DNA from: Spirochaetia bacterium
GTDB lineage: Bacteria; Spirochaetota; Spirochaetia; SZUA-6; Bin103
Assembly (NCBI GenBank): GCA_965203055.1
Contig: OZ241863.1
Coordinates: 3,744,001 to 3,808,000, forward strand
DNA length: 64,000 nt
Direction: 5' to 3'
Part shown: piece after piece, positions 41,126-63,927 of the stretch
How the letters are laid out: every line of letters begins with the position of its first letter
How positions within the stretch are numbered: position 1 is the first letter of the stretch
The notes under the pieces: generated by a model
Databases searched by the model: none
Told to the model about the DNA's origin: nothing
Seen by the model: the letters and a program-made list of their open reading frames with translations, nothing else
Position numbers and translations under genes: made by a program

Positions 41126-41224
41126 GTGGCTCCCTCCCGTTGGCGGGTACCGCGCGCCTGCCCGTTGCCGGTGGCTGGACAGCAGGCAAGGCTTGGTCCC
41201 ACTCTGCTGGCGGAGATTCTAGAC

Positions 41225-47100: not shown

Positions 47101-47355
47101 GAACAGGAAAAGAGCTTCGTCCTGATCGACTACAAGACCTTCACCGGCAACGCCGACGAGAGCGCCCTGCGCGCCCATGGGGTGCGCTACGCGCCGCAGC
47201 TCGCGGCCTATCGGCTCGCCCTGGAACGCGCTCTGGACAAGACGTGCGCCGCCACCCTGATCTGCTATCCGCTACGCGGCGAGCTGCTGGAAATCCACGT
47301 CGCCGAGCCGGAACGGCTGCTGCACGCCAGCAGCGCCGCCGCCGGCGGCCCCTAG
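44122..47355 (+). CDS. AddA-like UvrD helicase-nuclease
   Basis: AGAGTGKT, TFTRRAA, VDEFQDT, VGDPKQAIFGFRG, HGAKGLEW, LLYVIMTRAR, IDYKT and QLAAY motifs. Confidence 0.88.
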   Translation: MTPAAAGRRDHLPVTVIEAGAGTGKTYRLAEEISRAVASGEVRPEAILLTTFTRRAAAELTSRVTSRLIGAGRTREALRVGQARIGTVHSVCGRLLEQYALSAGLAVRHNVIPESEQRRLLNEALSTVLKPEENEELQLMAQCLYRLDWRDDVRELIGQARSNALAPEQFAGYAEASVREILAALPAESGSAAECLRLAREVEPQLGALLESGADTHKNTREALSTVRSYLALAEREVPVYWQRFQQLARAAAAKRTGAHALYQPLAEYAAGHHQWPQFRRQLGAYVRAIFALAARACERYEWIKAQAGVIDYADQEALAARLLEQEEVRAALAGELDLVLVDEFQDTSPLQLHLFLLLARCAPRSVWVGDPKQAIFGFRGTDPQLMLGVVERFTGGLDAGPERLDRSWRSLPQLVDWVNAAFQPVFARQGLDPQAVALRAQREGRLPAGSLESWVCRADNQEQDYAAIAAAVEQCLAHPEYYPVHGADGGQRPLRAADLAIAARTNAECAGLAQALAAAGVPYEMSTAGLLRQPVCELLLAALTLLLDPYDRLAAAQVTWFHDVWSAVTDAARQQRQAGDWLAARVREAETRDGARHPVVAALAAAAAGSALLAPAELARRAADVADVWRLVQGSAAPARAAADVDQFLALVREYEEIAAQRGQGVTHGGLLSWLRALAQSGDDQRHAAASDAVRITTWHGAKGLEWPMVVLYGFGDEPQTRFFGISAFTEGQDRGAGDVTDPLRGRALRFVPFPYHEATRNCGYRKAFVDTARFREAEAGDARERARLLYVIMTRARDRLVIAARGKARGGLRGLEVDGAPLCEVPQEPAQAPPGWRVREVRPARPARPAPAANDWFEYRARPPLVPARALPSHLQLPAGADGVSAGAVTRFAPPLELAAGGDPAATGAALHRLLAVDAAALSAEQRLRVAQRVLSPLPAGAVAPEQAVRCKEALEAHVARHWPGAALRREWPVSLQLDGLRLEGLADLVVEQEKSFVLIDYKTFTGNADESALRAHGVRYAPQLAAYRLALERALDKTCAATLICYPLRGELLEIHVAEPERLLHASSAAAGGP

Positions 47356-47367
47356 CGGCAACACCGG

Positions 47368-48231
47368 ATGCCACCGCCCGTCGGGCACCGCCCGCGGCTC
47401 CTGTTCGTGCACGGCTTCCTCGGAGAAGCGGCGGACTGGAACGAGCTGCGCGCGCTGTTGACTCCGTACTTTTCCAGTGACTGCTTCGAGCTTCCCGGAC
47501 ACGGCGCGGCGCCGCCGGTGGCCGGCCCCGCCGGCGACTGGTTCCCGGCGGCGGCTGCCCGCCTGCGGGCGGCGTGCGCCGCCCTGCCGGTCCCGCCGGT
47601 GGTGGTGGGCTACTCCATGGGCGGGCGGCTGGCGCTGTACACCGCGCTGCGCTTTCCCGAGGCGGCCGGCGGGCTGGTGGTGCTCGGCGCCGACCCCGGC
47701 CTGCGCGACCCCGCGGCGCGCGCCGCCCGCGGCGCGCGCGACGAGGCGCTGGCGCAGGAGCTGGCCGGCGCCCGCGGCGAGCACGCCTTTGCCGCGTGGC
47801 TGCGGCGCTGGTACGACTTGCCGCTGTTCGGCAGCCTGAGCCGCCAACGGCGCTTCGGCGGCCTGCTGCGGCGCCGGCTGCGGCAGGACCCGGGCCTGCT
47901 CGCCGCGGCGCTGCGCGGGCTTTCGGTCGCCCGCCAGCCCGTGCTCTGGGATGCTCTGCCGGAGCTGCGGTGCCCGGCGCTGTTCATCGCCGGCGCCGGC
48001 GACGCCAAGTACCGCGGCCTGGCGGAGCGCGTCGCGGCGGCGGGCGCCCGGTGGCAGGCCGCGCTCTGTCCCGGGGCGGCGCATGCCGTCCACCTGGAAC
48101 AGCCGGAGGCGGTCGCCGGCATGATCCGTCGATTCGCGGCGGAACTGCCCGCGCCCGCCGCGTTTGCCGCCGGCGCTTCCGGGGCGGCACATTGCGCGCA
48201 CCAACCTCATCCCCGAAAGGAGCAGCCATGA
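47368..48231 (+). CDS. menH: Alpha/beta hydrolase, MenH-like
   Basis: HGFLG, LPGHG, GYSMGGR, WY..PLF, D.KY and H..H.E.P motifs; directly upstream of menB. Confidence 0.75.
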
Positions 48232-49052
48232 GCGACCTCATCAACTGGACCGCATGCGGCGAATATCAGGACATTCTGTATGCCAAGGCGGAGGGCATCG
48301 CCAAGATCACCATCAACCGCCCGGCGCGGCGCAACGCCTTCACGCCGCTCACCGTGGAGGAGATGATGGCAGCCCTGGAAGACGCCCGCCGCGACCCGGC
48401 GATCGGGGTCGTGATCCTCACCGGGCAGGGCGAGCTCGCGTTCTGCTCCGGGGGCGACCAGAAGATCCGCGGCGACGCCGGCTACCGCGACCAGGGCGGC
48501 GACGACCGCCTCAACGTCCTGGAGTTTCAGCGCCAGATTCGCACCTGTCCGAAGCCGATCGTGGCAATGGTGGCCGGCTACGCCGTGGGCGGCGGCCACG
48601 TGCTGCACGTCATGTGCGACCTGACCATCGCCGCCGACAACGCCATCTTCGGCCAGACCGGCCCCAAGGTGGGCTCGTTCGACGGCGGCTACGGCTCCAG
48701 CTACCTGGCGCGCATCGTGGGCCAGAAGAAGGCGCGCGAAATCTGGTTCCTGTGCCGCCAGTACGATGCCCGGCAGGCGCTGGAGATGGGTCTGGTGAAC
48801 GCCGTGGTGCCGCTCGCCAAGCTGGAACGCGAGACGGTGCGCTGGTGCCGCGAGATGCTGGCGCACTCCCCCACTGCCCTGCGCTGCCTCAAGGCCGCCA
48901 TGAATGCCGACTGCGACGGCCAGGCCGGCCTGCAGGAACTGGCCGGATCGGCCACCATGCTGTTCTACCAGACCCCGGAGGCCCAGGAGGGACGCGACTC
49001 CTTCGTCGAAAAGCGCCCCCCCGACTTCACCAGGTTCCCCCGCCACTCCTGA
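48228..49052 (+). CDS. menB: 1,4-dihydroxy-2-naphthoyl-CoA synthase
   Basis: [50 protein letters not shown] and GLQELAG motifs. Confidence 0.96.
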
Positions 49053-49087
49053 CCGCTCCCGAGGCCGAATTGCCGACCGCCTCGTTC

Positions 49088-50156
49088 GTGGAGTTCGGGA
49101 CCAACAAGACGGTTCCGACGGCTACCAAAGTGCGAGGTGGGTACTACACGCCTGCTGCCCTCGCCGATTATCTGTGCCGATGGGCGATACGAAATCGCTC
49201 GGACCGGGTGCTGGAGCCGAGCTGCGGCGACGGCAGCTTCGTGTCCGCGGCCGCGCCGCTGCTCGGCGACGACGGCTCGATTACCGCCGTGGAAATCGTG
49301 CCCGTGCAATACGCCGCCGAGCTGCGCGACCGGCTGCCCCGGCTGTTCGACGCCGTATTCGTCATCGCCTTCGACCGGCTGGTGTTCCCGGACATCCAGC
49401 AGGAGGTGCTGCTGCTGCTCGGCGAGGGCCGCAACCGGAATCCTCAGACGTACGGCAGACTGTACACTCGGCAAGTCGCCAACGGCAAAGCGCTGTTGTC
49501 GATGGCGCGAACGGCCGACCTCGTTTCGCACGTGCCGGAGCGGCACACGCATGCCGACATGAAGTGGACGTCGCTCTTCCTCGAAGACGACGAGTTCCGC
49601 GCCCTCAGCGACGCCGCAGAAAGCGGGGCGCTTGACCGCATGGGCGATTTGGCGGGCGTGGACGTCGGCATCGTGACCGGGCGCAACAGCTTCTTCGTCG
49701 TTACCGAAGGCACGGCGCAGCGGCTGGGGCTGGATGGCCGCGCGGTCGACGTGGTCGGCCGGACCGCCGCCCTCAAGTCGATTCGGTTTACCGCGGACGA
49801 CCTGCAGCGTTACGATCCACCGCGTGCGGGTCGCCGCGGGGGTAGACGTAGATATGCTCTGCGCGTCGATGGTGAACTCGCTTACCTTCGCCTGGGCCGA
49901 AGTGTGCGGGCGGAGTTACGGCGGCGGCGTGCTGGAACTGGAGCCGCGGGAAGCGGAACGACTGTTGATCCCGTATCGGTTCTCGGCAGGCATCGACGTC
50001 GAGTACGTCGACCAGCGCCTACGGGCCGGCGACCTCGAAGGCGTGCTGGATCACGGCGACCGCGCGCTCCTCAAGGACGGATGCGGATTCTCCGACCGGG
50101 ACGTGACGCGCGCCGCATGGAACAGACTACGATCAAGGCGCCATCGACGAAGATAG
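49088..50156 (+). pseudogene. Internally deleted, frameshifted gamma-class (Eco57I-like) N6-adenine DNA methyltransferase
   Basis: GGYYTP and VLEPSCGDGSF are present but NPPY is missing (AVEIVP is joined to VQYAAELR). The C-terminus TIHRV...GRSYGGGVLELEP is in another frame after ~49810. Confidence 0.8.
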
Positions 50157-50235
50157 AAAGAAGATGCGTCGGAAGGACCTGTCCCTTCAGTTTAACTAAC
50201 CCAAGACACGTCCTCAGCCCGGCACAAGTTGAACG

Positions 50236-50522
50236 CCGCTCAGCTACAGTGTATGTTTACGAAGTGTCCGATACACGGATCGCGAATGGCTGAGCAATGG
50301 CGGAGGTTGGTATGTTGAACATACGGTCCAGGAGGTAGTACCTTTTCTGGTACCTGCTGCGTCGGGAGCGCTCTCTCCTGAGGAGAATGCTCTGGCAACG
50401 ACGGCAGACTATAGGCGCCGTTTACGGTGCCGTACTAAATGGATCGAACGTGCCTATTAAGGGTTTGTGCGTTCGATTGATTGTTTGCTGTTGCTAACTT
50501 CGAGGAGGATTGAATGGCAACA
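50236..50522 (+). ncRNA. Candidate structured RNA or leader (unassigned family)
   Basis: Series of stem-loops, several with G-U pairs, upstream of the ATG at 50514; see findings. Confidence 0.35.
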
Positions 50523-50929: not shown

Positions 50930-52405
50930 ATGTTCAACGAGGATAATGTCCCCGCTGGAGCGTTCGTCCGCATCAACGTCACGAAGAAGGCCAAGGCTGT
51001 GGTTGCGGTCCTTTCCCCGTATTCGAAGGTGGTCTATGTCACGCCGAATCCGAAGGATCAGACCAACAGGGCGCCCCATGAGGTTCCCTACAGCAAGGTT
51101 GCGCGGGTTTACAAGACCATCGACGCAGCCCGTGGGGATAAGATCAACCGGCGCGCGGATACTACGGTGTTCGAGCCGTCTGCGCGGTTGGCGTCTTTGG
51201 ACGAGGAAAAGTGGACCTCCCTGTATGGGGACGCCCTTTCGATCGCTGCGTACAATTTCGACACTGTACCTATCGGTGCCGTTGCCAGGATCCGTCTGTC
51301 ATCGACGCTTAACGTCGTCGTGCTTACCATCGTAGGCAAGGATGACGAGAAGGTATTCGTACATCCTCATCCAAAGAAGGATAAGGGTTCCTTAGCACTC
51401 TACGGAGCCAAGTACTCCAAGGTGCTCAAGCTGTACCGGACCTTGAAAGAAGCTTTGGCGGACCCCATCAACCAAGTTCCGTCCACAAAGATACTAGCTC
51501 CCCGTATGTCAGTTGCGGCTTTAGACGAAGCCGAATGGGAGGCAATTTACGGGGATACTTCCGAGGCGGAAGACATCATCGATCTCAGCCAGCTCTCCGA
51601 ACCCGCCCTTGACTTCGCCATTGATCTCCTGAGAGAACCCATCGACTCTCTTGATCTATCAATTCTAAACCAGCATCTTGTGCGCAGATGTTCTTTCAAA
51701 TCAAGATCAGACCGCGACTATTGGACGGTTTACAGACGAAAGATACAAAAGACTCTAAGTTGCGGAGCAATCTGTGGCTTCGACCTCCCACGATTCGTCG
51801 CCGACCGCTTGCTTAAATTACATCAAGTTTCGCTAATTGATCTATCCCATTACCTCGTCTTCAATGAAAGAAATGACCGCCTATCGACGATCATCAGAAG
51901 ATCCGACTATAGGAAAGTCTATACCGCATACATCAAATTTCTCAAAACACTTCGCAGATCGAGCCGCTACGGACGCCCATCTTCAAACAGGATCAAGTGG
52001 ATAGTGCCGACACCTCAAATGCAGCGGCAGCGTATCTACAGTTCTGATGATGACGTATGGTGTCATTGGATGCCGCTCGCTGTCGTTCAGCTTCTTCGCA
52101 GGTGGCAGCCACGTAGGATCAACTCACTACGCTTAGCCTTGTCCAGGCTTGCACAAGATATAGGAGGACAAAAGGTCTACTATCCTTGGTTTCCTACGTT
52201 CAATCTTGAAACGCGGTTCGTTCCGATACATGCGTTGTATCAATACGAACCATCAAGCCTCACACTCGGCGGCATAAAGGCACTACATAATTGCGGCCTG
52301 ACGTCGATAAACGACCTTCGGTGCCTCCATCCCCACGCTGTAGCCGCCGCGAAGGACCCAACCCAACCGCTTCTGCAGCTATATCGTGAGAATCATCCAA
52401 TCTGA
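50930..52405 (+). CDS. Hypothetical protein with an internal ~100-aa duplication
   Basis: GAGGAG RBS, 491-aa ORF in low-GC DNA, two copies of D.VP.GA..RI...V.V.P.PK...YSKV..Y.T...D.IN...LDE..W..YGD. Confidence 0.7.
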   Translation: MFNEDNVPAGAFVRINVTKKAKAVVAVLSPYSKVVYVTPNPKDQTNRAPHEVPYSKVARVYKTIDAARGDKINRRADTTVFEPSARLASLDEEKWTSLYGDALSIAAYNFDTVPIGAVARIRLSSTLNVVVLTIVGKDDEKVFVHPHPKKDKGSLALYGAKYSKVLKLYRTLKEALADPINQVPSTKILAPRMSVAALDEAEWEAIYGDTSEAEDIIDLSQLSEPALDFAIDLLREPIDSLDLSILNQHLVRRCSFKSRSDRDYWTVYRRKIQKTLSCGAICGFDLPRFVADRLLKLHQVSLIDLSHYLVFNERNDRLSTIIRRSDYRKVYTAYIKFLKTLRRSSRYGRPSSNRIKWIVPTPQMQRQRIYSSDDDVWCHWMPLAVVQLLRRWQPRRINSLRLALSRLAQDIGGQKVYYPWFPTFNLETRFVPIHALYQYEPSSLTLGGIKALHNCGLTSINDLRCLHPHAVAAAKDPTQPLLQLYRENHPI

Positions 52406-53763
52406 CGAGAAATTACCCTCCACCTTTCTTCCACTTCCTCGGGTCCGGGCAGCGGTATCAACATTGCCTGCCACTCGACTTTCAACTCCTCAAGGTTCGC
52501 GTAGTCATCTATCCCTACCTGGAACAAAAGGATCCTCTGGGCTACTTCCAATGCGCGTTTCCGATCCTCGCTACGCATTCTCCGCCTGCGCCCCCTAGCT
52601 AGTTCAGAATCTTCGACCAACAGGAGTCCTATCCAAGGAGGCATCCGCAGGTCCCATTCCACCTCCGCAAGCACCCTGATACAGGCGCGTACGTCTTGCT
52701 CAGTTGGTGAACTTGGATCAGGAAGACGCCGGTTCATCATGATTCTCGCTACGGAGGCAAATAATTCCTGCCCTATCGGCCAAAACAGAAGATGATCCGT
52801 ATGGCCATCCGGATGATCTAATTCTGCGTCGTGCTCACGCATCTTCGCAGGCTCGGAATTTAGCACATCAATCTCCGACAAGATAGCGCTCCAGTAAACC
52901 ATCAGCTCACTGAACATCCCGTCGAGCTCCTCTTCAGCCGGTCTGAATTGTCGGTAATCCCCCCTGCGCCTCCAAAGACGACCACGCTCCGGGGTATGTA
53001 ACAGCGTCTCATTCATGGCGTACAGTGTCTGAAGCGTGGTGAAATAGCTGTCACCAGAACGCAGGTTCTTACCCTTCGTCTTCAATTTAGGTGAAGTAGT
53101 CGGCGTACCCCTCCAAACAAAGAAGTCGTGCTCGATAATCAGACGTCGAGTTAGAATAGCGACAGCGTCGTCTTCATCCATAATAATGTTCGTATCTGCA
53201 TCCGTCGGCTTTGCGTATCGGTTGAGACTAGAGAAAATACGACGGTAGCTCTTCATAAACTCCGCTTCGTCAGTCTCTTCTCGGACGATCATTATCACCG
53301 ACACCTCTTCGTCTATAAAGCCCTCCGGAATTTCCGGCACATCCGCTTCGCCCTGCTCGATCAGCGTCTTAATGGCCTTCAGTCGATGCTGCCCGTCTAG
53401 TGCGAAATATCGTTGTCCCCCAATAAACGTAAGGACGCCAAACGAGTTGACCAAGTTTGCAGGTCTGAATAACTCAAATCGCGGATCATGGGCTATATCT
53501 ACAGGAATAAATTCCGGATTACCGCCGAGCGCAGCGACAACGATCGACGAAAAGAACCGATCATCCCGTCTTCCCAAATATTGGACGATCTCGTTCTTTA
53601 CGCGACTTTCATTCAGGGACCGTTGGATAGCGTCGTCCAACGTCTTGTTGCTATAGATCTCCGACGCGAAGCCTACTTCATTTACGATCTCCCTCATCGT
53701 CATCTTGACAACGTAGTATGTCCAGCTTCCCATACTTGCCTTCAGAGCCGGGTACAAATTCAT
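52393..53763 (-). CDS. DGQHR-domain / DndB-family protein
   Basis: IQRSLNESRV, RFFSSIVVA, FALDGQHRL and IFSSLNRYAKP motifs; GGAGG RBS. Confidence 0.88.
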   Translation of the reverse strand: MNLYPALKASMGSWTYYVVKMTMREIVNEVGFASEIYSNKTLDDAIQRSLNESRVKNEIVQYLGRRDDRFFSSIVVAALGGNPEFIPVDIAHDPRFELFRPANLVNSFGVLTFIGGQRYFALDGQHRLKAIKTLIEQGEADVPEIPEGFIDEEVSVIMIVREETDEAEFMKSYRRIFSSLNRYAKPTDADTNIIMDEDDAVAILTRRLIIEHDFFVWRGTPTTSPKLKTKGKNLRSGDSYFTTLQTLYAMNETLLHTPERGRLWRRRGDYRQFRPAEEELDGMFSELMVYWSAILSEIDVLNSEPAKMREHDAELDHPDGHTDHLLFWPIGQELFASVARIMMNRRLPDPSSPTEQDVRACIRVLAEVEWDLRMPPWIGLLLVEDSELARGRRRRMRSEDRKRALEVAQRILLFQVGIDDYANLEELKVEWQAMLIPLPGPEEVEERWRVISRQIG

Positions 53764-53789
53764 CTGATCCTCCTATATCTATTTATTGC

Positions 53790-54380
53790 CTAACGGTCGT
53801 GTACGCCTATGGCCACCGGATCACCTATCGCGCCAGAGATCGATCCAGGCTGGTCGTTGGCGATCGGCCCGAAGCAGCGAATCAAGATTGCCTCATCGGC
53901 ACCAAGCCGTTCGGCCCCGCGACGGTGATACCAGAACTGCATAGATGCACCAAAACAACGCCGAGCTGCCTCTAATTTCACTGATGGGCTCCTGCAATGC
54001 TCCAGAAAACGCCGCCTCAGATTGCCGGTTTTACCGATATAGATCGGCGTCAACAGAATCGAAAACAGATCATTGTCGCGGTATTCTGACAGCCTCCTGC
54101 GACCTACCGGCGATGTGCAAACGAAGTATAGCCCGGACTGTCTGGCGGGCACAAGCACAGCTTCGTTCTCCACAAATCCGACCGAATTCCAAGCGTTACT
54201 GTCGCGCAGATCAGCCGGAACCTGCGCCCATAGCTCAGCGTCATACTGCCAGCCGTAGCTTAGCACGGCGACACCGTGAGCAACGACCACGAACCCCCAG
54301 CCGACCGGACGCTCAGCCAGTGTGCCGTCTGCCTCATACACCTCATCGTATCTCCCATCCACCAACCCAATATATCTCAT
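53790..54380 (-). CDS. GIY-YIG nuclease family protein (start uncertain)
   Basis: SGLY...PIYIGKTGNLRRRFLEH...EAILIR.F.P..N matches the GIY/YIG, Arg, His, Glu and Asn catalytic pattern. Confidence 0.75.
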   Translation of the reverse strand: MRYIGLVDGRYDEVYEADGTLAERPVGWGFVVVAHGVAVLSYGWQYDAELWAQVPADLRDSNAWNSVGFVENEAVLVPARQSGLYFVCTSPVGRRRLSEYRDNDLFSILLTPIYIGKTGNLRRRFLEHCRSPSVKLEAARRCFGASMQFWYHRRGAERLGADEAILIRCFGPIANDQPGSISGAIGDPVAIGVHDR

Positions 54381-54405
54381 TCAACAATCGTCAGGAAATC
54401 ACGCG

Positions 54406-56142
54406 TCACAGGCTGTCGAGAACCCGTGCTCCATCGGTAAGCGACGCAACGATCTTACGAAATAGCTCCGACTTTGACGCAAGGAGGTCATCGATCTTTG
54501 ACTCGACTGTTCCTTGAGACCTCAAGCGATAGACATAGACCGCCCGCTTCTGACCAATACGGTTAACTCGATCTCGAGCTTGGGCGTTGACAGCAGGGTT
54601 CCACCATTCGTTCAAGAATACAACATGGTTTGCTGCAGTGAGCGTAAGCCCCTCGGCGGTTGCTCGGATAGAACACAGCAGTACAAACGGATCTGACGAT
54701 GATTGGAACGCCTTCACGATACTCGATCTTGCCGCGGAATCAGTCTGGCCAGTAATCATGGCAACCGAGCTATTCCCATACCGATTGGTGACTTTCCGAC
54801 GGACTATACGCAGAGGCTCTAGTCTCCACGAGAATACTACAACTTTCTCTCCGAGTTCTCGTATTGCTTCAGTGATTACTACTGCTCGGTCTACTTTTGA
54901 GCTTTTCTTGGTCACCGGATCGAAGTCGCATATGCTGCGTAGCTTGTTGAATAAACTGATCCATAAATCGACGGTCGTGATCGATCCACTATTTGCGCGT
55001 ACTCTATCATATTCACGCCTCTGTTCGACCGATAATGGAATCATCTCTGTTCGTTCTAGGACAGTCGGAAGTTCCTCCGAAATCACCGTCCGCGGCCGCC
55101 GCAAAACATAGCCTGCCGCAAGTGTCCTAAGCGATGCCGGAGACAGATAACGGTCGCGTAGTGACACTCTTTTTCGATCGAGTAAGTGAAGGATAGCGGT
55201 CAAGTCGCCTGCATGGTTCTCCAAAGGCGTGCCAGACAGACCCCATGCAAATCGAGGATACAACTGAAGTGATGAAGAATAGTTTAGCGAATATGGATTC
55301 TTGAGCTTGTGTATTTCATCGAAAATTACAAGATCGAAAGACCGAGGATCAATTCGGTTTCCGCGAATAGCCTCGTAATTCGTAATTGCTACGTGGCACT
55401 GCGCCTTTATCAGACTCCACGCTTTAGGCTCCACGCTAGAGTATAACACCACCGCACACAACTGTGGTGCCCATAATTTGATCTCCGCTTCCCAGACACC
55501 AAGCAGTGACTTTGGGCAAAGGACGAGAGCGCTGTTGATCTTTCCAGACCTCTTCATTTCTTCCAATGCGGCAATCGCCTGCAATGTTTTTCCTAGCCCC
55601 ATGTCATCAGCGAGTATAGCCGCTGACCGGCCGCTAAGCCACTTAACGCCATATCCTTGGTGTCTTTTGAACGGAATATTGTCGGGACGCTTCATGAATC
55701 GCCAACGCCATAGCTCACCGAGGTTGAAGTATCGACGGCGCTCTGCCCGCCGGGTGACTCGGATAACGGGTGGATCTGTTTGTGGAGATAGCAATGTCAC
55801 TGATTCTCCGGTGTCAATGCGTTGTACGAGATCTGGTCGGCTGCCCTCAATATACTCGATAAGGTCCAGTATATCAGATACAAGACACTCGAACGTATCA
55901 TCCGAAAAGGCTATTGATTCAGCGGGCGCAGACGTGGTAGATGTGGCGGACGATAACCGAATTGTTAGGCCAAGTGAGGTTCGCTCAAGCAGGTAGCGGA
56001 TGGTTGGGCGCTCAGATGCTTGGCGTATACCGCTATCTTGTTGGACGTGAACCATCGGTGTCGCATGTAAACTATTGGTTCTGTGGACGCTGGATATTAA
56101 AGGTGTGGGACCCTTTCGACCTCTGTCTGTTAAAGATGACAT
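54406..56142 (-). CDS. SNF2-family helicase/ATPase (start uncertain, 56142 or 56055)
   Basis: ILADDMGLGKT, DEIH, LSGTPLEN, EGLTLTAAN, WWNP and QARDRVNRIGQ motifs. Confidence 0.9.
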   Translation of the reverse strand: MSSLTDRGRKGPTPLISSVHRTNSLHATPMVHVQQDSGIRQASERPTIRYLLERTSLGLTIRLSSATSTTSAPAESIAFSDDTFECLVSDILDLIEYIEGSRPDLVQRIDTGESVTLLSPQTDPPVIRVTRRAERRRYFNLGELWRWRFMKRPDNIPFKRHQGYGVKWLSGRSAAILADDMGLGKTLQAIAALEEMKRSGKINSALVLCPKSLLGVWEAEIKLWAPQLCAVVLYSSVEPKAWSLIKAQCHVAITNYEAIRGNRIDPRSFDLVIFDEIHKLKNPYSLNYSSSLQLYPRFAWGLSGTPLENHAGDLTAILHLLDRKRVSLRDRYLSPASLRTLAAGYVLRRPRTVISEELPTVLERTEMIPLSVEQRREYDRVRANSGSITTVDLWISLFNKLRSICDFDPVTKKSSKVDRAVVITEAIRELGEKVVVFSWRLEPLRIVRRKVTNRYGNSSVAMITGQTDSAARSSIVKAFQSSSDPFVLLCSIRATAEGLTLTAANHVVFLNEWWNPAVNAQARDRVNRIGQKRAVYVYRLRSQGTVESKIDDLLASKSELFRKIVASLTDGARVLDSL

Positions 56143-56942
56143 ATGGCGCAACCCTCTGCCGCTTCGATAGACTGGAGAGGGAATTCTTCCAGCAGGGTCT
56201 CGACGTCGTCCAATGAGCGTCCTTGCACCCATGTATAACGCTTGGTCCCGTTGGGGCGCTCATACGACTTCGCACTCGTGAATAGAGTTGGGTGCTCGTG
56301 GCGCAGGCGCTGCCACTCGCCGATCTGCTGGTAGAAGCAGAAGTAGCAACCGGAGCGGGAACGCCAGCGGTAGTAGTCGGGCAGGCCGATGCCGGACGTT
56401 TCCAGGATTTCCTTGACTGTCCCAAGGTCGATGCCATCGTCCTTGAATGGGTACACAGGAACAATGTTGGGACGGTCGGAGAACACTGGTGGCTTCTTAG
56501 GGGTGTAACCCTGCCGGTCTTCGTCGGCCCGGATGCCGATGTAGCTGAAGGCGGTGTCGGAACCGACGTAGCGCTCGAATGGTTCGATCTTCAACTTGCG
56601 CGTGCACCAGCGAGCCTGCGGGCTCGGCAGGAAGCCAGAGTACATCTCGTTAAGCACGAAGTCAAACGCCTTTCGCGTCGGCTTGCGAGTGACGTTCATG
56701 TAGTCGAGCGCGTTGATCCGATGAATCGGCTTGCCGAGCAGCGCTTCCAGCCTGTCCAGGTAGTCGTAGGTCTCGGGCAGCTCCGCGTCAGTGTCGCAGA
56801 ATACGTATTCGCTCGGTAGCTGCGGGTAGGTCTGCGTCAGGTAGATCGCCAACGCGGCCGAGTCCTTGCCGCCGGACACCGGGACGACGTGGCGGATAGA
56901 TGGATCAGCAAGCGCTTCAAGCGCTTCGTGCAGGTTAGCCAT
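56130..56942 (-). CDS. sspD: PAPS-reductase family protein, SspD-like
   Basis: PP-loop SGGKDS, RWCT..LKI.P, GIRADE, SGCYFC and C-terminal CAIC; located after the ATPase, DUF4007 and desulfurase genes. Confidence 0.75.
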   Translation of the reverse strand: MANLHEALEALADPSIRHVVPVSGGKDSAALAIYLTQTYPQLPSEYVFCDTDAELPETYDYLDRLEALLGKPIHRINALDYMNVTRKPTRKAFDFVLNEMYSGFLPSPQARWCTRKLKIEPFERYVGSDTAFSYIGIRADEDRQGYTPKKPPVFSDRPNIVPVYPFKDDGIDLGTVKEILETSGIGLPDYYRWRSRSGCYFCFYQQIGEWQRLRHEHPTLFTSAKSYERPNGTKRYTWVQGRSLDDVETLLEEFPLQSIEAAEGCAICHL

Positions 56943-59900
56943 CGGAGCTGACCTCCTCGGTGATGTGCTCTAGTGCATCCTCGACAATGGTGCGCGTCCG
57001 GTCCGGGCCGGCAACGGTGGCGATTGCGCGCAACGACGCCTGCAGCCTGGAGGTGGCGATGTCCACGACGGCCTGGCTGCGAACGCCGTCGGCAGTCGTC
57101 GAAAGGCTGAGCACGGCATCCTCCACTCGGCGTATCACGGCGCCGAGCTCTCGCTCAAACACCACGATGGAACTATCCTCCCACCGATCGATGCGCTTAC
57201 CGACGAGCAACGCGGCCAGGGCGTCGGCCATTGCCCGATCGGTATCGTAGCTCATGCCCGTCCGCGTTATCAAGGCGCGTGCAATGCCATCCTTGACCTC
57301 CTTCGCCACGCTGCCCGGAAAGAACTCGGCCCATGCGCCCACGACCTGACGAAGCGTTGCGGCCTGCCTGTTCTGCGCTAGAAATGCCGAGCGGATGGCG
57401 CGTTCGGCTGCTTCGTAGTTCCAGTGCACGACGCCCTCCATCTCTGTCTTGCAGTCGCTCAGCGCGTGCAGCAGATCATCAATGCTCGACCCGTTCGGAT
57501 CAAGTGCGTCGGGCAAAGCATTGAACAGCAACCGATACGGATCGATAGCCGTGGCGGACATGAGTCGGCCGAACGCCCGCCCTCGGGGCGAAAGATACCG
57601 CGACGTAAGCGCGCTGTGCGGGAGGGTGCTGCGCCACCGCATCAGTGCATCATGGCAGCGTCGCACCGGGTCAGCCTCCACCGCGCCATCTTCCGTGAAA
57701 CCGAACAGCGCGGCAACCCGGTCAAGGAATGCCTTCTGATCAAAGGTCAGTTCAGGGACCAGCACCTGGTACTCGGCCGGGTGGGCGGCCATCGCTTCGA
57801 TAGTCGAGGGAAGCAGGTCATTGACGTATTCCCCATTGATCCGGGTGATGCTGATCGGACCGGGAAACGCCCGCAACGCCGCCGCAAGCAGAATCGGGAC
57901 AATCCCTTCCCGTACACCGTACGGAGCTGCGCTGAGCAGAGAAGTCAGATCCCCCAATGGCTTGGGGCGTCCCCCAGGGACGGTCAGGAAGTCCCGCAGG
58001 TGCTTCCAGACATCACGCAACCCAGGATCCGCCAACTCCTCGGGCGCGGCATAACGCCATACCGAGCCGCCGTCTTCCCGTCCACCGTCGGTTCGATACA
58101 GACCGGTCATGAGCAGCACCGTCCGGAACATCGACATGTCGGGCCGATACCCTTCCAACCCCAGGTTCTCAGTACCCGAACTCTCGAGAATACCCAGAAC
58201 CAGCTTCTTGCGCGCGTTGACGACAACCGGGCGAGGCCGACGCCGCACGATCATCTCATTCTTGATGCGCGGCGTACGCGGGTATAGTGTCCGCATGATC
58301 GTCGAGAGTAGCTGCCGCAACTCCTTGGCCGACGCGATCTCATGGAACCGATTACCCCATAGATACTCCGGTCCTTCGGCGGAAGGCTGAGACATCCGGG
58401 CGACTTGTTGGCTGAGATACCCCTGCGAGTCGTCGATCATCTGCGCAAGCTCCGACTCGACGAGCGGGTCCTCGGCTAGCAGGCCGGTGTCCTGCCGCAA
58501 CAGTTGCAGCGCGCGCACTTCAAGCGCGTTCTCGGCGATCGGAGCGACATACCGTGGCAGCGCGACGATTACGCCGGTCTCCGGCGTCTCCGCAACGAGG
58601 CGCTTTCGAACTTCCTCCGTCTCGTCGTACGAATCGGGAATGACCACGTACAGCGTGCCGTCTGGCGCTGACGGCGGGAGCGCTTCCGCCACGCTAGCCG
58701 CAGTAATGACGGCCCCGGCGGCGACATAGCAAGTATCGAAGGATCGTTCGATACCGTACTTGACGTTGTAGTCAATCGGCTTCCACGGTGCCAGAGGCGC
58801 TTCTGAGGTCAGAAACGAGACGTGATCGAATCGTGGCCGCAACCGATCCTTCTCCTGATCGAGCCGCCCGCGAAGATCAAGATCGGTACCGTGCCAGACG
58901 GATACGCTGTCTGCGTTGCGTCGATAGAGCAGCAGCTTGGCGTCGATCAAGCGTATCACGCTGTTGCTCGCCGTCCCGTCCTTCCGGTACCCGGACACTG
59001 CGTACTCAAGCAGCCGCCGGCTGACGCGCGAACGCTCCCCGATCAAGCCAAGTCCGAGCAGGCAGGCGCACTTGAGTGCCTTCTCGTCGATGCCGCCTAC
59101 ATTGTGCAGTGCCGCCTCGGTCTCCAGCCACGTGTGATAGCTGCCGCCCGGCAGGGTGTCCGCGCGCATCGCGTCGGAGAAGTAGTCGTACAGGCTGTCC
59201 GGCGAAACGGGAGCGGCCGCATCAAGCGAGTTGAGGTAGGTGAACAGGGTCCGTTCGTTCTGGGCCACTCGGGCGGAGACTCGCGGCAGCAGATACAGGG
59301 TCAGTGGCTCCAGCGGATAGGAGTCGGCCAACGTCCGCTCCATCTCTTGTTTCGAGAAATCGCTGAAAAGGCCCACTTCACGGCATCTCCGTACGCTGCG
59401 GTCCACCAAGTCCGACGAGGGAGCGTTCGAGGACCTGATTTGGCGCACGATTCGGCTGACCAACTGGTACAGCTCCTTGCTGTCGTCGACGAACTGGACC
59501 GTCTCGAACCGTCCCTCGATCTTCTTCCACTCCCGCTGTACCGTCACCGAGGTGTTGGCGGCGTAGCGTACCAGTCCCTGATGGAGCAGTAGCGCAAAGG
59601 TCGTCGCCGCCCGCTTGGTGCGCGCGCAGAATTCCGCGAGCGTCTGTACGTCGGACAAGTCCGCCGCCGTTCCGCGGAGGATTAGCTCCTCGAGATGGCG
59701 GCCGAATTCATCCCAGACGATCGCCAAGCGGTCAATCGGCTCCGGGCAGTAGCGATCGCGTACCGCACTGAGCAACGCGATGACGTCGTCCATCGAATCA
59801 GCGCGCCGGCGAGACACCAGTGCCGCCGCGTTCCTGTTGCCCGTCCGCCGAAGCGACGTGATGAGAGACTCCTTGATGGCGGTCGGGAGATGTCGCTGGA

Positions 59901-60339
59901 AGCCGGATAGGGCGACGGTGGCACCATGTCTACCGAACAGGGGCATCTGCTCGCTGCCGATACGCGACCTCAGTTCGTTTGCAAGTTCGCCGTCGACTCC
60001 GGCGAACCGTTCGGTGACCCGCTCCAACACCACGTCCGCCGGGCGCAGATTCTCGACGACCTGAATGAAGAACGCCGCGGTGAGAGACTTGCCGGTTCCG
60101 TACGGCGCTACTACGAAGTAGCTTGAAGACCCATCAGGCTGCAGCAGCCACGACCGCAACAGCCGGGCGCTCTTCGCCGTGGGATGAAAGTGAGCGATAC
60201 GCTGCGGTGCGGCGCCGTCGAGCGTAATGTTGATGGAGCGCAGGCGCATCGCCGTTTCCAGCATGGATTCATCCGCGGCGGGAACAGCGGTGCCGTTCTT
60301 CCGTATCTTGGTCAAACTCCTGGTGCTCATCTCAGGCAT
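56935..60339 (-). CDS. sspC: Large P-loop ATPase, SspC-like
   Basis: RSINI, Walker A APYGTGKS, Walker B IVWDEFGRHLE, EWKKIEGRF, YPLEP, QNERTLF and APYGVREG motifs; ~1130 aa. Confidence 0.75.
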   Translation of the reverse strand: MPEMSTRSLTKIRKNGTAVPAADESMLETAMRLRSINITLDGAAPQRIAHFHPTAKSARLLRSWLLQPDGSSSYFVVAPYGTGKSLTAAFFIQVVENLRPADVVLERVTERFAGVDGELANELRSRIGSEQMPLFGRHGATVALSGFQRHLPTAIKESLITSLRRTGNRNAAALVSRRRADSMDDVIALLSAVRDRYCPEPIDRLAIVWDEFGRHLEELILRGTAADLSDVQTLAEFCARTKRAATTFALLLHQGLVRYAANTSVTVQREWKKIEGRFETVQFVDDSKELYQLVSRIVRQIRSSNAPSSDLVDRSVRRCREVGLFSDFSKQEMERTLADSYPLEPLTLYLLPRVSARVAQNERTLFTYLNSLDAAAPVSPDSLYDYFSDAMRADTLPGGSYHTWLETEAALHNVGGIDEKALKCACLLGLGLIGERSRVSRRLLEYAVSGYRKDGTASNSVIRLIDAKLLLYRRNADSVSVWHGTDLDLRGRLDQEKDRLRPRFDHVSFLTSEAPLAPWKPIDYNVKYGIERSFDTCYVAAGAVITAASVAEALPPSAPDGTLYVVIPDSYDETEEVRKRLVAETPETGVIVALPRYVAPIAENALEVRALQLLRQDTGLLAEDPLVESELAQMIDDSQGYLSQQVARMSQPSAEGPEYLWGNRFHEIASAKELRQLLSTIMRTLYPRTPRIKNEMIVRRRPRPVVVNARKKLVLGILESSGTENLGLEGYRPDMSMFRTVLLMTGLYRTDGGREDGGSVWRYAAPEELADPGLRDVWKHLRDFLTVPGGRPKPLGDLTSLLSAAPYGVREGIVPILLAAALRAFPGPISITRINGEYVNDLLPSTIEAMAAHPAEYQVLVPELTFDQKAFLDRVAALFGFTEDGAVEADPVRRCHDALMRWRSTLPHSALTSRYLSPRGRAFGRLMSATAIDPYRLLFNALPDALDPNGSSIDDLLHALSDCKTEMEGVVHWNYEAAERAIRSAFLAQNRQAATLRQVVGAWAEFFPGSVAKEVKDGIARALITRTGMSYDTDRAMADALAALLVGKRIDRWEDSSIVVFERELGAVIRRVEDAVLSLSTTADGVRSQAVVDIATSRLQASLRAIATVAGPDRTRTIVEDALEHITEEVSSDG

Positions 60340-61255
60340 GCACCAACTCCCTGGCAACGACGTCGAAGTGCCGCGCCAGCAGCCTCGGGGCCGGCGTACG
60401 GTCGAAGCGAAGCTGTCGGTCGCCGGCAAGGCCGCTCATGGCAAGTGGCGCGTCGGCGCCGTTCGCTTCCAAGTCCACCAGATGTTCAAAGAGCGCGTCG
60501 GACGACAGCGCCAGTACCTGTGCCGGGCCACTCTCCATCCGCTGCAGGTCGTGCAGCGTCACGTCGACGGTGCCGGCGCTCTCACCCATCATCAGGTCCG
60601 GAGTCTGCAAGGCGTACAACAATACCTGCGAAGGTATGGACTTGCGACGACGGTTCAGTTCGTAGTAGCCGGATGCGCGGAAGTGACGGATGATCCTCAG
60701 CTCCTGAAACGGACAGTCGATTTCCTCCTCCGGGTCCTTACGCCGGTAGGGCACTTCGACCGCATAGCTTCCCAGGAAGCAGCTCACGTCGCGCTCCAAC
60801 GTCTTACGCGTGGCCGAGCGCCGCGAGCTCACGCGATCATGCTGTTCGAGCTGGGCCACTACCGTGGCTCGTTCGAATCGGCTTGATGCATAGTGGTTGA
60901 AGAACCAGTGCCACGTTGCCGCGTGAGCCGGGGTGCGCACCAATTTGATATGCAGGAACCACCACGTGCCGGGATCGAGAAACCATGGATCGTGGCGCGC
61001 GACCACCTCGCCAAGCTCAGAGACCGCCAAACGGGGTTGCCCGTCGCGACGGCCGCGGCCTCGGCGCTCGATCTTTTCTGCCAAGCCGGTGGCCAGCAGC
61101 CAGTGCTCGATGGACTTCGCCATGTTTCGGCCCACTCCGAGAATGTCCGCGACGTAGGGGTTGTCGAACTTGCTCGGATCCTCCCGGAGCAGCGCGAGCC
61201 CCTTTGCCAGCCAGCCCTCGCGGATGAAGAAGGTCTGATGTCCGCCAAACCGCAT
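60332..61255 (-). CDS. sspB: DUF4007 family protein, SspB-like
   Basis: FGGHQTF.IREGWLAKG, LGVGRNMAKSI.HWL, DPWF.DPGTWWFLH and CPFQEL motifs. Confidence 0.8.
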   Translation of the reverse strand: MRFGGHQTFFIREGWLAKGLALLREDPSKFDNPYVADILGVGRNMAKSIEHWLLATGLAEKIERRGRGRRDGQPRLAVSELGEVVARHDPWFLDPGTWWFLHIKLVRTPAHAATWHWFFNHYASSRFERATVVAQLEQHDRVSSRRSATRKTLERDVSCFLGSYAVEVPYRRKDPEEEIDCPFQELRIIRHFRASGYYELNRRRKSIPSQVLLYALQTPDLMMGESAGTVDVTLHDLQRMESGPAQVLALSSDALFEHLVDLEANGADAPLAMSGLAGDRQLRFDRTPAPRLLARHFDVVARELVHA

Positions 61256-61256
61256 G

Positions 61257-62411
61257 CTACGCCGCTCCAATACGGTGCAGACGAGACACCAAGTCCCGGT
61301 AGGCGTCGATGACGCAACGCGCTCCGCGTTCGGCTTCTTCCGGCGTGTTGAGAACACCGAACGAGAATCGGAGCGAAGCGTATGCCTCCGTCTCCGAGAG
61401 GCCCATCGCGGTAAGCACGTGCGACGGCGTGGGCCGCGCGGTCGTACACGCGGAGCTCTGCGAGCAGTAGAGCTCGCGGTCGTCCAGGGCGGCGATGAGC
61501 ATCGTGCCGTCGATGTCGGGAAAGCGCAGATTCGAGGTATTCCCCACTCGGTGATGACGGTCACCGTTGACCGTCACCCCCGGTTCGGCGGCAAGGACCG
61601 CCTGCTCGAAGGTGTCGCGGCATGCCGTCAGCAAGGCGGTGACGCCGGTCAGGTCCCGCACTCGGTCCGCCGCGGCGGTGCCGAATCCGACGGCGCCGAT
61701 CAGATTTTCGGTGCCGCCGCGCAGACCCTGTTCCTGATCCCCCCCGCCGACGAGCGGCTGCAGCACCGACGGGTCGCGGGCGTACAGGGCGCCGCAGCCG
61801 GTCGGGCCGTGTATCTTGTGCGCGGTCACGCTCAACAGATCCGGGCCATGCTGCCGGCCGACGTCGACCGGGAGCTTGCCGAGCGCCTGCGCGGCGTCGC
61901 AGTGGTACAGGGCGCCGGCTTGATGACTGATCTCCGCTACCGCCTCCACCGGTTGGACGACGCCGGTTTCGTTGTTCACGGACTGCACGGACACGAGCGC
62001 GGTGTGCGCGTTGACCATATCGGCCAATCGATCAAGGTCGATGCGGCCGGATTTCGCTACCGGCGCTTCATGCACCACGTAGCCGCGCCGGCTGAGCAGC
62101 GCGGCGTTTGCCGTCACGGATGAGTGTTCGACCGCGCTGACGATGATCTCGTCGCGCTCCCCGCGGGTCTGCGCCGCGGCGACGGCCATGGCGTTCGCCT
62201 CCGACCCGCTCGCCACGAACAAGACGCATTCGGATCGCGCCCCGAGTGCCGCGGCCACCTGATCGCGCGCCTTCTCAAGCAGGGCGCGCGCCTCATGACC
62301 GAGGCGGTGCGGGCTTGACGGGTTGCCAACCGGACCGGCGATCAGCGATTCGACGCGGGCTCGCACGGCGGGGCTCAAGAACGTGGTAGCGTTGTTGTCG
62401 AGGTAGATCAT
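61257..62411 (-). CDS. sspA: Cysteine desulfurase (IscS/DndA/SspA-like)
   Basis: IYLDNNATT, GNPSS, NNETG, HCDAAQ, TAHKIHGP, RGGTEN and catalytic SSAC motifs. Confidence 0.85.
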   Translation of the reverse strand: MIYLDNNATTFLSPAVRARVESLIAGPVGNPSSPHRLGHEARALLEKARDQVAAALGARSECVLFVASGSEANAMAVAAAQTRGERDEIIVSAVEHSSVTANAALLSRRGYVVHEAPVAKSGRIDLDRLADMVNAHTALVSVQSVNNETGVVQPVEAVAEISHQAGALYHCDAAQALGKLPVDVGRQHGPDLLSVTAHKIHGPTGCGALYARDPSVLQPLVGGGDQEQGLRGGTENLIGAVGFGTAAADRVRDLTGVTALLTACRDTFEQAVLAAEPGVTVNGDRHHRVGNTSNLRFPDIDGTMLIAALDDRELYCSQSSACTTARPTPSHVLTAMGLSETEAYASLRFSFGVLNTPEEAERGARCVIDAYRDLVSRLHRIGAA

Positions 62412-62472
62412 CGTTTCATCGCCCGGCCAACCAAGACGGTATAGACCGTACCACATCGGTTTCTGGAAGTCA

Positions 62473-63927
62473 CTACGCCGGCCTTCCAGTAGACGCCGCC
62501 CACGCTCGCGGCCGCAGGTTGCGCTCGCGCACGATCAGGCCAAACGGTTCGTTATGCATCAGGACCCTCCTGCCCAATACAACGGCCCGTTCGTCCGTGC
62601 TGCCTTCATCGAAGCCGAGAATCTGCTTCCCGATGAGCAGTTCCGGCTCCGCGTTCGTCGAGTGGTCGAAGAATCGCACCTGCTGACTCTGCAGGTCGAT
62701 CTTCACCCGCGACCTCAGGCGCGGCCGCGCCTCCCGCACGTCGCTGAGCGAGAACAGGGAGAGGCGCGGCGATGTCTTGTGGATCTTGATCACGTCCGCG
62801 CGGTCGAGGTCGCCTGAGAACAACTCGCCAAGGCGCGCGTAGATCTGCAACGTGGGGTCAAGGGACGTCAGATCGCGCCGGGCGACGAAGTAGCCGTCGG
62901 CCGTATTCACCCCGACCGGAGCGTCCTCGCATAGCCGCGCCACCCGCTCCGCATCGCCCGCCGCGAACAGGTGCTCGTCGCTCAATTGCTTGAGGTGGCT
63001 GTAACTGCGGAAGTAGTAGCGAATGTCGTAGCGGGACGTGGCCGGCAGGTCGCGCAGCCGCGGCACCCCGCGGAACCGGCAGATCGCCATGAACGTCAGG
63101 AACTGATTGGTATGGCGGCGCCGTTGCTCCGCGAGCTGATCCTGCGCCAGCGCGCCGGAAGCTGCCTCCCACAGATCGGCAGGTGCAAGACCATACTCTG
63201 CGGCGACCGGCAGCGCGGCGGTTTCGCCGGCCGCGGGTGGACGAGCTCGGGCCGCCGCGAAGTCGACGTACGCCGACCACTCCTCCGCGTGCTCCGTCTG
63301 AAAGGCCGACATGAGTGCGGTTCGCAGCACGCGCTTGCGCTCCCGAGGGATGCCGCGGACGAGCGGCACGGAACGCTGAATGCGATTGAGCAGGAAGGCA
63401 TGGGCATCGGCGCTCTGTCTGAAGATCAGAAAGACGCCCGCTTCAAGCGGGATCGGCGCGACGCCGAGGACCTCTTCAAGGTACCGTCCCGCCTCTTCCT
63501 GGTGGTAGTACTTCTGAAAGGTCTGACGCGACGTAAGTAATCCGTCCCCATAGGGTTGCGCTTCCCCGGAATAGGTCGCGGAGCCGACCAGGACGGCGAC
63601 GCACAGGCATCCACCGGCGAGATCGAACGCCCGCCGCAGGGCGTCGGCCCGTTCGGCCGGCCGCTCGATGACGTTGAGCACGTACCCCAGGTTGACCACT
63701 GCCGCGCCGCGCCGCGCTTCGTCCGGCCGGTGCGCCGGGTCCCAGCCGTGCGCGTCGTAGCCGAGCGACCGCAGGAAGCGCACGTCGTCGCCGAGGCCGC
63801 AGCCGTAGTCGAAGAAGGTGTGTTCCGGCGTGAGGACGCCGTTGCCGATGAGCAGTTGCACGGGCCGGGACAGGTCCGATCGCGCTATCGCGGTCCGGTC
63901 ACGCCGTACTTCCACCGAGCTACCCAC
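62473..63927 (-). CDS. DNA phosphorothioation-associated putative methyltransferase family protein
   Basis: RTAI.R..LSRP, FDYGCG.GDD, GWDP.H, VNLGYVLNVIE..ER, DG.LT...TFQKYY and D.IKIH motifs; adjacent to the PT genes. Confidence 0.8.
   Translation of the reverse strand: MGSSVEVRRDRTAIARSDLSRPVQLLIGNGVLTPEHTFFDYGCGLGDDVRFLRSLGYDAHGWDPAHRPDEARRGAAVVNLGYVLNVIERPAERADALRRAFDLAGGCLCVAVLVGSATYSGEAQPYGDGLLTSRQTFQKYYHQEEAGRYLEEVLGVAPIPLEAGVFLIFRQSADAHAFLLNRIQRSVPLVRGIPRERKRVLRTALMSAFQTEHAEEWSAYVDFAAARARPPAAGETAALPVAAEYGLAPADLWEAASGALAQDQLAEQRRRHTNQFLTFMAICRFRGVPRLRDLPATSRYDIRYYFRSYSHLKQLSDEHLFAAGDAERVARLCEDAPVGVNTADGYFVARRDLTSLDPTLQIYARLGELFSGDLDRADVIKIHKTSPRLSLFSLSDVREARPRLRSRVKIDLQSQQVRFFDHSTNAEPELLIGKQILGFDEGSTDERAVVLGRRVLMHNEPFGLIVRERNLRPRAWAASTGRPA

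Follow-up and report, generated by a model that had tools for sequence, protein, structure and literature searches.

Two described effectors of DNA phosphorothioation (PT), SspE and DndI, are ParB-like NTPases with a DGQQR motif fused to an HNH nickase, and in both of them PT DNA stimulates the NTPase, which governs cleavage (PMC11662687, PMC8092258). In DndI, stimulation of the ATPase by PT leads to release from self DNA (PMC11662687). The other Ssp effector, SspFGH, damages non-PT DNA; SspF carries a Walker A motif only, SspH has an FtsK/SpoIIIE-like C-terminus, no further homology to annotated genes was reported, and translocation is the role given to the translocase-like parts of DndFGH and SspFGH (PMC8092258). 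The minimal Ssp modification set consists of sspBCD and a desulfurase (PMC12914056, PMC8092258), and most of 2,678 sspBCD loci lack a known partner, with sspFGH present in 196 and sspE in 199 (PMC8092258). Here, we describe a PT locus with a different set of partner genes in a 64,000-nt stretch of contig OZ241863.1 (hereafter the window) from a Spirochaetia bacterium whose genome is one contig of 4.56 Mb. Locus coordinates are positions in the whole window.

The locus comprises an intact SspABCD operon that continues into genes for an SNF2-family helicase, a GIY-YIG nuclease, and a DGQHR protein (together, the cassette), on which a further gene, orfX, converges. We propose, with a probability of about 0.6, that this set is a restriction arm of Ssp, one that is undescribed in the literature searched; from domain content and gene linkage, we infer that the cassette would act by reading PT. 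As in SspABCD-SspE, the modification module is accompanied beside sspD by a ParB/Srx DGQxR NTPase-type domain and a nuclease. However, SspE is a single protein of ~770 aa with DUF262 and a DUF1524 HNH domain, whereas here a DndB-family DGQHR protein is encoded next to a separate GIY-YIG protein of ~158 aa, and the cassette adds an SNF2 motor and sometimes orfX. The DndI of IscS-DndBCDE-DndI also combines a DGQQR ParB-like NTPase with a nuclease that reads PT (PMC11662687) and is a second precedent for a ParB-like reader and nuclease in PT defence, but it works with double-strand Dnd modification, is a single fused HNH protein, and has no helicase partner. SspFGH also consists of three effector genes next to sspBCD, one of them for a protein resembling a DNA translocase, yet, going by its description, it is set apart from the SNF2, GIY-YIG, and DGQHR proteins found here, none of which gave an FtsK-type Pfam match. 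The cassette matches neither SspE nor the published account of SspFGH, the latter having been compared by description only.

Organization of the locus

Eight minus-strand open reading frames (ORFs) lie closely spaced and in the same orientation at 52393-63927. When each is extended to its longest form, neighboring ORFs are separated by gaps of 26, 25, and 16 nt or overlap by 103, 8, 98, and 308 nt. The overlaps fall to near zero at the likely starts, which are ATG 61255 for SspB, ATG 60339 or 60330 for SspC, ATG 56142 or 56055 for SNF2, and GTG 54266 for the GIY-YIG gene. Neighboring genes then meet end to end or share a few bases, and every frame is open. No homopolymer run of 8 nt or more occurs within 47-64 kb of the window, and the translations and alignments showed all catalytic motifs of the cassette proteins to be intact. 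The eight genes form one tightly packed operon, and the coordinates, shared orientation, and families that an earlier, sequence-only reading had assigned to this run were borne out.

The first gene of the operon encodes a PT-associated putative methyltransferase (62473-63927), which scored 369.4 bits against TIGR04096 (cut-off, 150) and had no Pfam match. It is followed by the gene for SspA, a cysteine desulfurase (61257-62456; Aminotran_5, 6.8e-65), which matched PADLOC SspA at 4.6e-108 over 370 of 374 profile positions and DndA at 1.2e-106. SspB is a DUF4007 protein (DUF4007, 2.8e-59; PADLOC SspB, 2.5e-95) that is likely encoded at 60332-61255, the longest ORF extending to 61564; in that long ORF, DUF4007 spans residues 106-392 and the PADLOC match begins at residue 104 and covers profile positions 1-291 of 293. 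SspC, the large ATPase (56935-60339; longest ORF to 60429), matched its PADLOC profile at 4.9e-152, with residues 63-1104 aligned to positions 6-1050 of 1054. SspD, a sulfurtransferase of the PAPS-reductase family (56130-56942), matched PAPS_reduct at 1.1e-09 and PADLOC SspD at 3.4e-92. All four Ssp proteins were thus matched nearly full length by PADLOC, as the assignment to an SspABCD module had implied. The module is intact and is predicted to place single-strand PT modifications on host DNA.

The cassette follows sspD on the same strand and consists of the genes for the SNF2-family helicase/translocase (54406-56142; longest ORF to 56232), the stand-alone GIY-YIG nuclease (53790-54266; longest ORF to 54380), and the 456-aa DGQHR-domain protein of the DndB family, which is ParB/Srx-like (52393-53763). 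On the plus strand, orfX (orf491; 50930-52405) converges on the DGQHR gene, and the 3' ends of the two overlap by 13 nt (52393-52405).

Conservation of the cassette beside sspBCD

Relatives of the cassette were collected by two routes. Entry through the nuclease profile yielded nine loci in one-genome-per-species contigs, whose record titles name Vicinamibacterales (2), Luteitalea, Azotimanducaceae (2), Pseudohongiella, Pseudomonadales, an unclassified gammaproteobacterium, and Dehalococcoidia. Entry through the DGQHR profile alone yielded 299 relatives in metagenome contigs, from which 80 loci were kept and scored with hidden Markov models made from the window and the nine genome loci; collapsing at 95% identity of the DGQHR protein gave 71 clusters.

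In all nine genome loci, the DGQHR gene lay directly downstream of the nuclease gene, and sspB, sspC, and sspD were found no more than 10 kb away. An SNF2 gene was present in 7 of 9, and a homolog of the C-terminal domain of orfX was present in 6 of 9. The metagenome loci gave a similar picture. The nuclease gene was directly upstream of the DGQHR gene in 65 of the 67 loci with at least 500 bp of upstream sequence (59/61 non-redundant), all but L028 and L054, and a partial nuclease gene was visible in 10 of the 13 loci with less. The distance from the GIY-YIG stop codon to the DGQHR start had a median of 16 nt and ranged from -8 to 91 nt (70 loci). Among metagenome loci of at least 12 kb, sspC and sspD were present in 16/16 (14/14 non-redundant), SNF2 in 15/16 (13/14), sspB in 12/16, sspA in 8/16, and a TIGR04096 methyltransferase homolog in 5/16; the last was found at 5 of the 14 non-redundant loci and, among the nine genome loci, near the cassette at L019 alone. 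The proposed association of the trio with ssp genes therefore recurs elsewhere, with sspBCD at 9/9 genome loci and with sspC and sspD at 14/14 non-redundant metagenome loci, while SNF2 accompanies the genome loci in 7 of 9 cases.

Gene order and orientation varied among the genome loci. In the metagenome loci, SNF2 was located downstream on the same strand 23 times, downstream on the opposite strand 18 times, and upstream twice; the order in the window, sspD-SNF2-GIY-DGQHR, is the rare arrangement with SNF2 upstream. One metagenome locus (L054:5416-11458) reads sspC, sspD, sspA, an unknown 431-aa protein, a DndB-family protein of 414 aa, an unknown 655-aa protein, DGQHR, and SNF2. The GIY-YIG and DGQHR genes are hardly ever parted and adjoin sspBCD in several phyla, and the persistence of this linkage across phyla despite rearrangement argues for a functional unit. 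Because SNF2 is dispensable in some loci, we regard the pair as the invariant core. The sequence-only reading had described a downstream module of three genes; its GIY-YIG and DGQHR core stood, but it counted the dispensable SNF2 gene as a full member and overlooked orfX as a fourth partner.

These counts also bear on whether the cassette might be a defence system in its own right that only shares its island with ssp and may, as has been proposed for DndFGH, act independently of PT recognition. It has been argued that DndFGH often occurs uncoupled from the genes for Dnd modification (PMC10853773), cassette and ssp genes of this one operon differ in G+C content, and the genome is rich in other defence-type genes, including nine DUF262 genes, all of which would fit such a system. 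Chance co-location in islands, however, would not give a linkage in which ssp genes accompany the cassette at 9/9 genome loci and at 16/16 metagenome loci of 12 kb or more (14/14 non-redundant) while order and orientation vary. Given these counts, we consider an independent system distinctly improbable.

We also looked at genomes from the side of sspD. SspD-positive genomes numbered 4 of 401 sampled from the phylum of the window and 7 of 400 scored in the class of one cassette-bearing genome, the centre genome being counted in each case. A query for the DGQHR subfamily, which was positive in 5/5 known carriers, was positive in 0/9 of the further SspD-positive genomes. Two of these nine (G456 and G755) had sspE directly beside sspD, and the other seven had neither sspE nor the cassette. 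This indicates that the cassette is one option among several and is dispensable for Ssp itself; two sets of ~400 genomes each, with 9 further SspD-positive genomes, are too small a sample for a rate. A known carrier, G404 (locus L018, with sspABCD, GIY-YIG, and DGQHR but no SNF2), encodes a full-length SspE (E 7e-168; C1:2570007-2572277) 1.75 Mb away from the locus, and a second, weaker DGQHR-family gene lies at 2595968. SspE and SspFGH are known to co-exist (PMC8092258).

The GIY-YIG and DGQHR proteins

Taken on its own, the protein encoded at 53790-54380 matched no family at E 0.01, and its score against Pfam GIY-YIG (PF01541) was 16.1 bits (E 0.014), below the gathering cut-off of 22.6. Its relatives place it more firmly: 22 of 22 aligned relatives matched PF01541 at E ≤1, the best at 4.7e-06, and G83-x-Y85, Y114-I-G116, R124, H128, E163, and N175 were invariant among them. 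In the GIY-YIG superfamily, catalytic roles are assigned to the tyrosines, the arginine, the metal-binding glutamate, and the asparagine. When the family profile was compared with PDB sequences, the best match was T4 endonuclease II (2wsh; E 0.0032). On the strength of the family profile and motifs, the protein is a predicted GIY-YIG nuclease. A word-based search found 33 relatives, and 233 cluster representatives were recovered at E ≤1e-10 when the profile was searched exhaustively. Nearly all of these stand alone, have 145-155 aa, and begin at profile position 11; we therefore place the start of the window gene at GTG 54266. Four cysteines (C88, C129, C142, and C169 in long-ORF numbering) were also invariant in 22 family members, and these may bind a metal or be connected in some way with the sensing of sulfur.

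The DGQHR protein matched Pfam DndB (PF14072) at 3.6e-27 (95.8 bits; cut-off, 29.1) over residues 4-387 and the TIGR03187 DGQHR domain with 104.1 bits (cut-off, 58.85). The motif itself, D123 G124 Q125 H126 R127, was invariant in 25 sequences. It shares its Pfam family and DGQHR motif with DndB, but it exceeds the DndB profile in length by ~100 aa, its gene comes after one for a GIY-YIG protein, and its neighbors are ssp and not dnd genes. No relatives of the protein were found in viral contigs. An AlphaFold2 (AF2) model built from 25 sequences had a mean predicted local distance difference test score of 74. The best matches of its N-terminal domain were BrxU (Z 5.4 over 116 residues; root-mean-square deviation [rmsd], 3.3), SspE (Z 4.9 over 125 residues; rmsd, 3.6), PadC (Z 4.5), and sulfiredoxin (Z 4.1). 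These matches agree weakly with the ParB/Srx family assignment and are no proof of it. There was no clear fold match for the helical C-terminal half of the model, a Foldseek search with the model returned nothing at E 0.001 (SspE entries ranked 2 and 6, with E >1), and comparison of the profile with PDB sequences gave nothing meaningful, the best hit being an unrelated protein at E 0.052. Prediction of a complex between the GIY-YIG and DGQHR proteins, both entered as alignments, scored 0.19 against a mark of 0.32 and is neutral on binding.

Membership in the DndB family raises the alternative that the cassette serves modification rather than restriction. The DGQHR protein would then be the Ssp counterpart of DndB and set PT frequency, the GIY-YIG protein would nick DNA for sulfur insertion, and SNF2 would help SspBC to scan. 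The extent of the PF14072 match (residues 4-387) and the position of the cassette in the same operon as sspABCD are in keeping with this, as are reports of DndB as a regulator of PT level (PMC4507180, PMC10853773). Several observations speak against it. Against the DndB equivalog TIGR03233, the protein scored 51.2 bits, far below the cut-off of 328, and aligned over residues 4-216 only. Canonical Ssp modifies DNA with sspBCD and a desulfurase and with none of the cassette genes (PMC12914056, PMC8092258), and the subfamily was absent from the nine other SspD-positive genomes sampled. Moreover, a dedicated nuclease together with a translocase is the typical make-up of a restriction arm, and the cassette occupies the place beside sspD that is held by sspE in G456 and G755. 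We therefore consider a role in modification unlikely, though it is the strongest of the alternatives.

The SNF2 protein and orfX

The SNF2 protein has no fused nuclease domain. It matched SNF2-rel_dom (PF00176) at 7.7e-35 (120.8 bits; cut-off, 24.9) and Helicase_C (PF00271) at 2.1e-15 (57.4 bits; cut-off, 23.5), and the motifs GLGKT, DEIH, SGTP, and QARDRVNRIGQ are present in its translation. Homologs align from about residue 75-82. The best PADLOC match was ZorD (6.7e-66), followed by DpdE (3.9e-51), but the protein fell below every NCBIfam equivalog cut-off, with 117.1 of 1500 bits for ZorD, 79.5 of 610 for DrmD, and 69.4 of 500 for DpdE. Its score against TIGR04095, a Dnd-associated restriction enzyme, was 33.7 bits and also below the cut-off (600). 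The SNF2 motor core is common to ZorD, DpdE, DrmD, and the window protein; however, the three named proteins are longer, the window protein matches their motor half only, and their partner genes are absent here.

The product of orfX is conserved in a C-terminal helical domain (~residues 260-490). Homologs of this domain (~230 aa) were found at 6 of 9 genome loci, always convergent to the DGQHR gene and usually directly after the SNF2 gene, with stop and start codons overlapping, and at 10 of 80 metagenome loci. The convergent 3' overlap with the DGQHR gene recurs at L013, L016, and L017, where it measures 4-9 nt, and leaves no space for a terminator between the two genes. Relatives of orfX are 349-848 aa long, and among 17 aligned members, the N-termini of the longer ones contain Sigma70_r4 in 6 and RNA_pol_A_CTD in 4. 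The window protein itself had no Pfam match. Its N-terminal half (50930-51700) contains two tandem repeats of ~100 aa that are shared only with the close relatives P0158 and P0159; these had no family match, and the AF2 model was of low confidence there. The C-terminal domain was modeled confidently as all-helical, but Foldseek returned nothing better than E 0.6. A wide VIA search reached Z ≤5.7 only, on helices of the low-confidence half (residues 151-243), and Atlas gave only leads under 0.9 (best, 0.87; RpoA-CTD clusters, 0.81-0.82). The product of orfX may be a variable DNA-binding adaptor or regulator.

Search for sspE and for earlier descriptions

None of the SNF2, GIY-YIG, and DGQHR proteins had a PADLOC SspE match at E 0.01, and no cassette protein matched Pfam DUF262 or DUF1524 at that threshold. 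An hhalign comparison between the DGQHR family and three SspE proteins from other genomes aligned 40 columns around DGQ(H/Q)R with a probability of 3%. As this alignment covers the motif region only, we conclude that the DGQHR protein is not SspE, and the trio as a whole is distinct from it, as the sequence-only reading had held. Its further statement that no sspE-like gene is visible here extends to the 20 kb beyond the window end, where we found a PIN-domain gene and ileS instead. Elsewhere, the genome, which is rich in defence genes, contains nine DUF262/GmrSD_N genes (L003-L010 and C1:1733836-1734246), the nearest ~100 kb away. Eight of the nine proteins were rejected as SspE, since their best PADLOC matches were HEC-05, HEC-06, Orf5, NsnA, and PDC-M55C and their SspE scores were weak and partial.

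We then asked the literature and the profile collections for the cassette. Dnd modification neighbourhoods are reported to recruit varied nucleases, including URI/GIY-YIG, as likely restriction components, but the passages of that survey consulted make no mention of a GIY-YIG, DGQHR, and SNF2 set (PMC10853773). PbeABCD, described in the same source, is unrelated, comprising an HKD-helicase, a small protein, a CxC ABC-ATPase, and DndE (PMC10853773). Full-text searching found no paper that brings sspBCD together with SNF2. The cassette was also not described in the portions consulted of the literature on phosphorothioation with SNF2 and GIY-YIG, of the DGQHR literature (including PMC3226654 and PMC3632139), or of the recent sspBCD literature searched (including PMC13712998 and PMC12914056). 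In PADLOC 2.0, the nuclease lacks a model and the DGQHR protein has none other than DndB, and NCBIfam release 20 names neither protein. The cassette could have been described under another name outside the literature searched; in view of the silence of the sspBCD/SNF2, phosphorothioation/GIY-YIG, and DGQHR literature and of both profile collections, we rate this as very improbable. That the combination was not a described system, as first suggested, agrees with these searches.

Proposed function

In the arrangement that we propose, host DNA would be marked with single-strand PT by SspABCD. Reading of PT would fall to the DGQHR protein in an NTP-dependent manner, by analogy to the ParB-like DUF262 domains of SspE and DndI, and the DNA would be nicked or cleaved by the separate GIY-YIG protein, a task of the fused HNH domain in SspE and DndI. 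The SNF2 motor might use ATP to move the complex along DNA in search of invader DNA that lacks the marks. The orfX product could serve as a DNA-binding adaptor or regulator, its relatives carrying helix-turn-helix and RpoA-CTD-like modules. Either polarity would be compatible with the sequence: the cassette may be activated by PT, as SspE is, or restrained by it, as SspFGH and DndI are. The predicted presence of the SspE/DndI functions on two adjacent proteins, together with an SNF2 motor, leads us to favour a PT-reading restriction arm. With respect to the alternative PT-sensing restriction module first put forward for this locus, the conserved, ssp-linked set is now established by observation, whereas PT sensing and restriction are predicted from domains and linkage.

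A number of observations weigh against a PT-reading restriction arm. Most of the DGQHR protein resembles DndB (PF14072, residues 4-387), and characterised DndB is a regulator of PT level and not an effector (PMC4507180, PMC10853773). Its sequence likeness to SspE is limited to the DGQxR motif, and its ParB/Srx-fold matches are weak (Z 3.4-5.4), under the trust level of the tool. SNF2 was not found at L014 and L018, 2 of the 9 genome loci, when the locus DNA was examined. L054 has two DGQHR genes and no GIY-YIG gene, and L028 has 587 bp upstream of its DGQHR gene with no nuclease match. Finally, the DGQHR subfamily was missing from all nine further SspD-positive genomes.

Island context

The operon lies in a region of reduced G+C content. 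At ~49-65 kb, G+C drops from 70-78% to 50-68%, which fits an acquired island. Within it, the ssp genes have 58-68% G+C, whereas orfX and the DGQHR, GIY-YIG, and SNF2 genes (51-56 kb) have 50-53%, compared with 70-78% in the flanking chromosome. This step inside one operon suggests that the effector cassette was swapped in from a donor of lower G+C content. To the left of the island are housekeeping-type genes for AdnAB-like helicase-nucleases, an alpha/beta hydrolase, and enoyl-CoA hydratase. The AdnAB-like proteins are encoded by two long plus-strand genes with PD-(D/E)XK and UvrD domains (41126-44125 and 43696-47355), and a family-B DNA polymerase gene lies on the minus strand at 37560-40076. 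A type II methyltransferase-like gene on the plus strand (~49050-50293; PADLOC MTase_II PDLC03267, 1.4e-50; weak Pfam N6_Mtase match) forms the left island edge; no homolog of it was found at genome loci L011-L019. We rejected orf709 (48164-50293) as a single gene, since an enoyl-CoA hydratase gene in a different frame runs through its first 890 nt, and the methyltransferase-like gene probably starts near 49050 instead of 48164. To the right, past the window end, a PIN-domain gene (L002:1512-1931; PIN_3, 4.3e-13) lies between the methyltransferase gene of the operon and the isoleucyl-tRNA synthetase gene (ileS) and is probably a toxin-antitoxin toxin at the right island edge. Predicted signals at 50-64 kb were uninformative, with 5 promoter-like sites (4.8 expected) and 18 terminator-like sites (10.5 expected; standard deviation, 3.9).

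Significance

Two partners of Ssp in PT defence have been described, SspE and SspFGH, and a known partner is present at only ~15% of the 2,678 sspBCD loci surveyed (PMC8092258). A conserved multi-phylum cassette at the place of sspE is a concrete candidate for a missing Ssp partner. On balance, we lean towards a third Ssp effector arm distributed over several phyla, a split counterpart of SspE and DndI that would be driven by SNF2 and tuned by orfX and would explain part of the ~85% of sspBCD loci without a partner. Should the cassette instead regulate modification, Ssp would have its first described control of the DndB type. With the candidate ParB-like reader and the GIY-YIG cutter on separate proteins, sensing and cleavage would be separable for study and for recombination, and the SNF2 motor would tie PT defence to the translocase-coupled logic of Zorya ZorD, DISARM DrmD, and Dpd DpdE.

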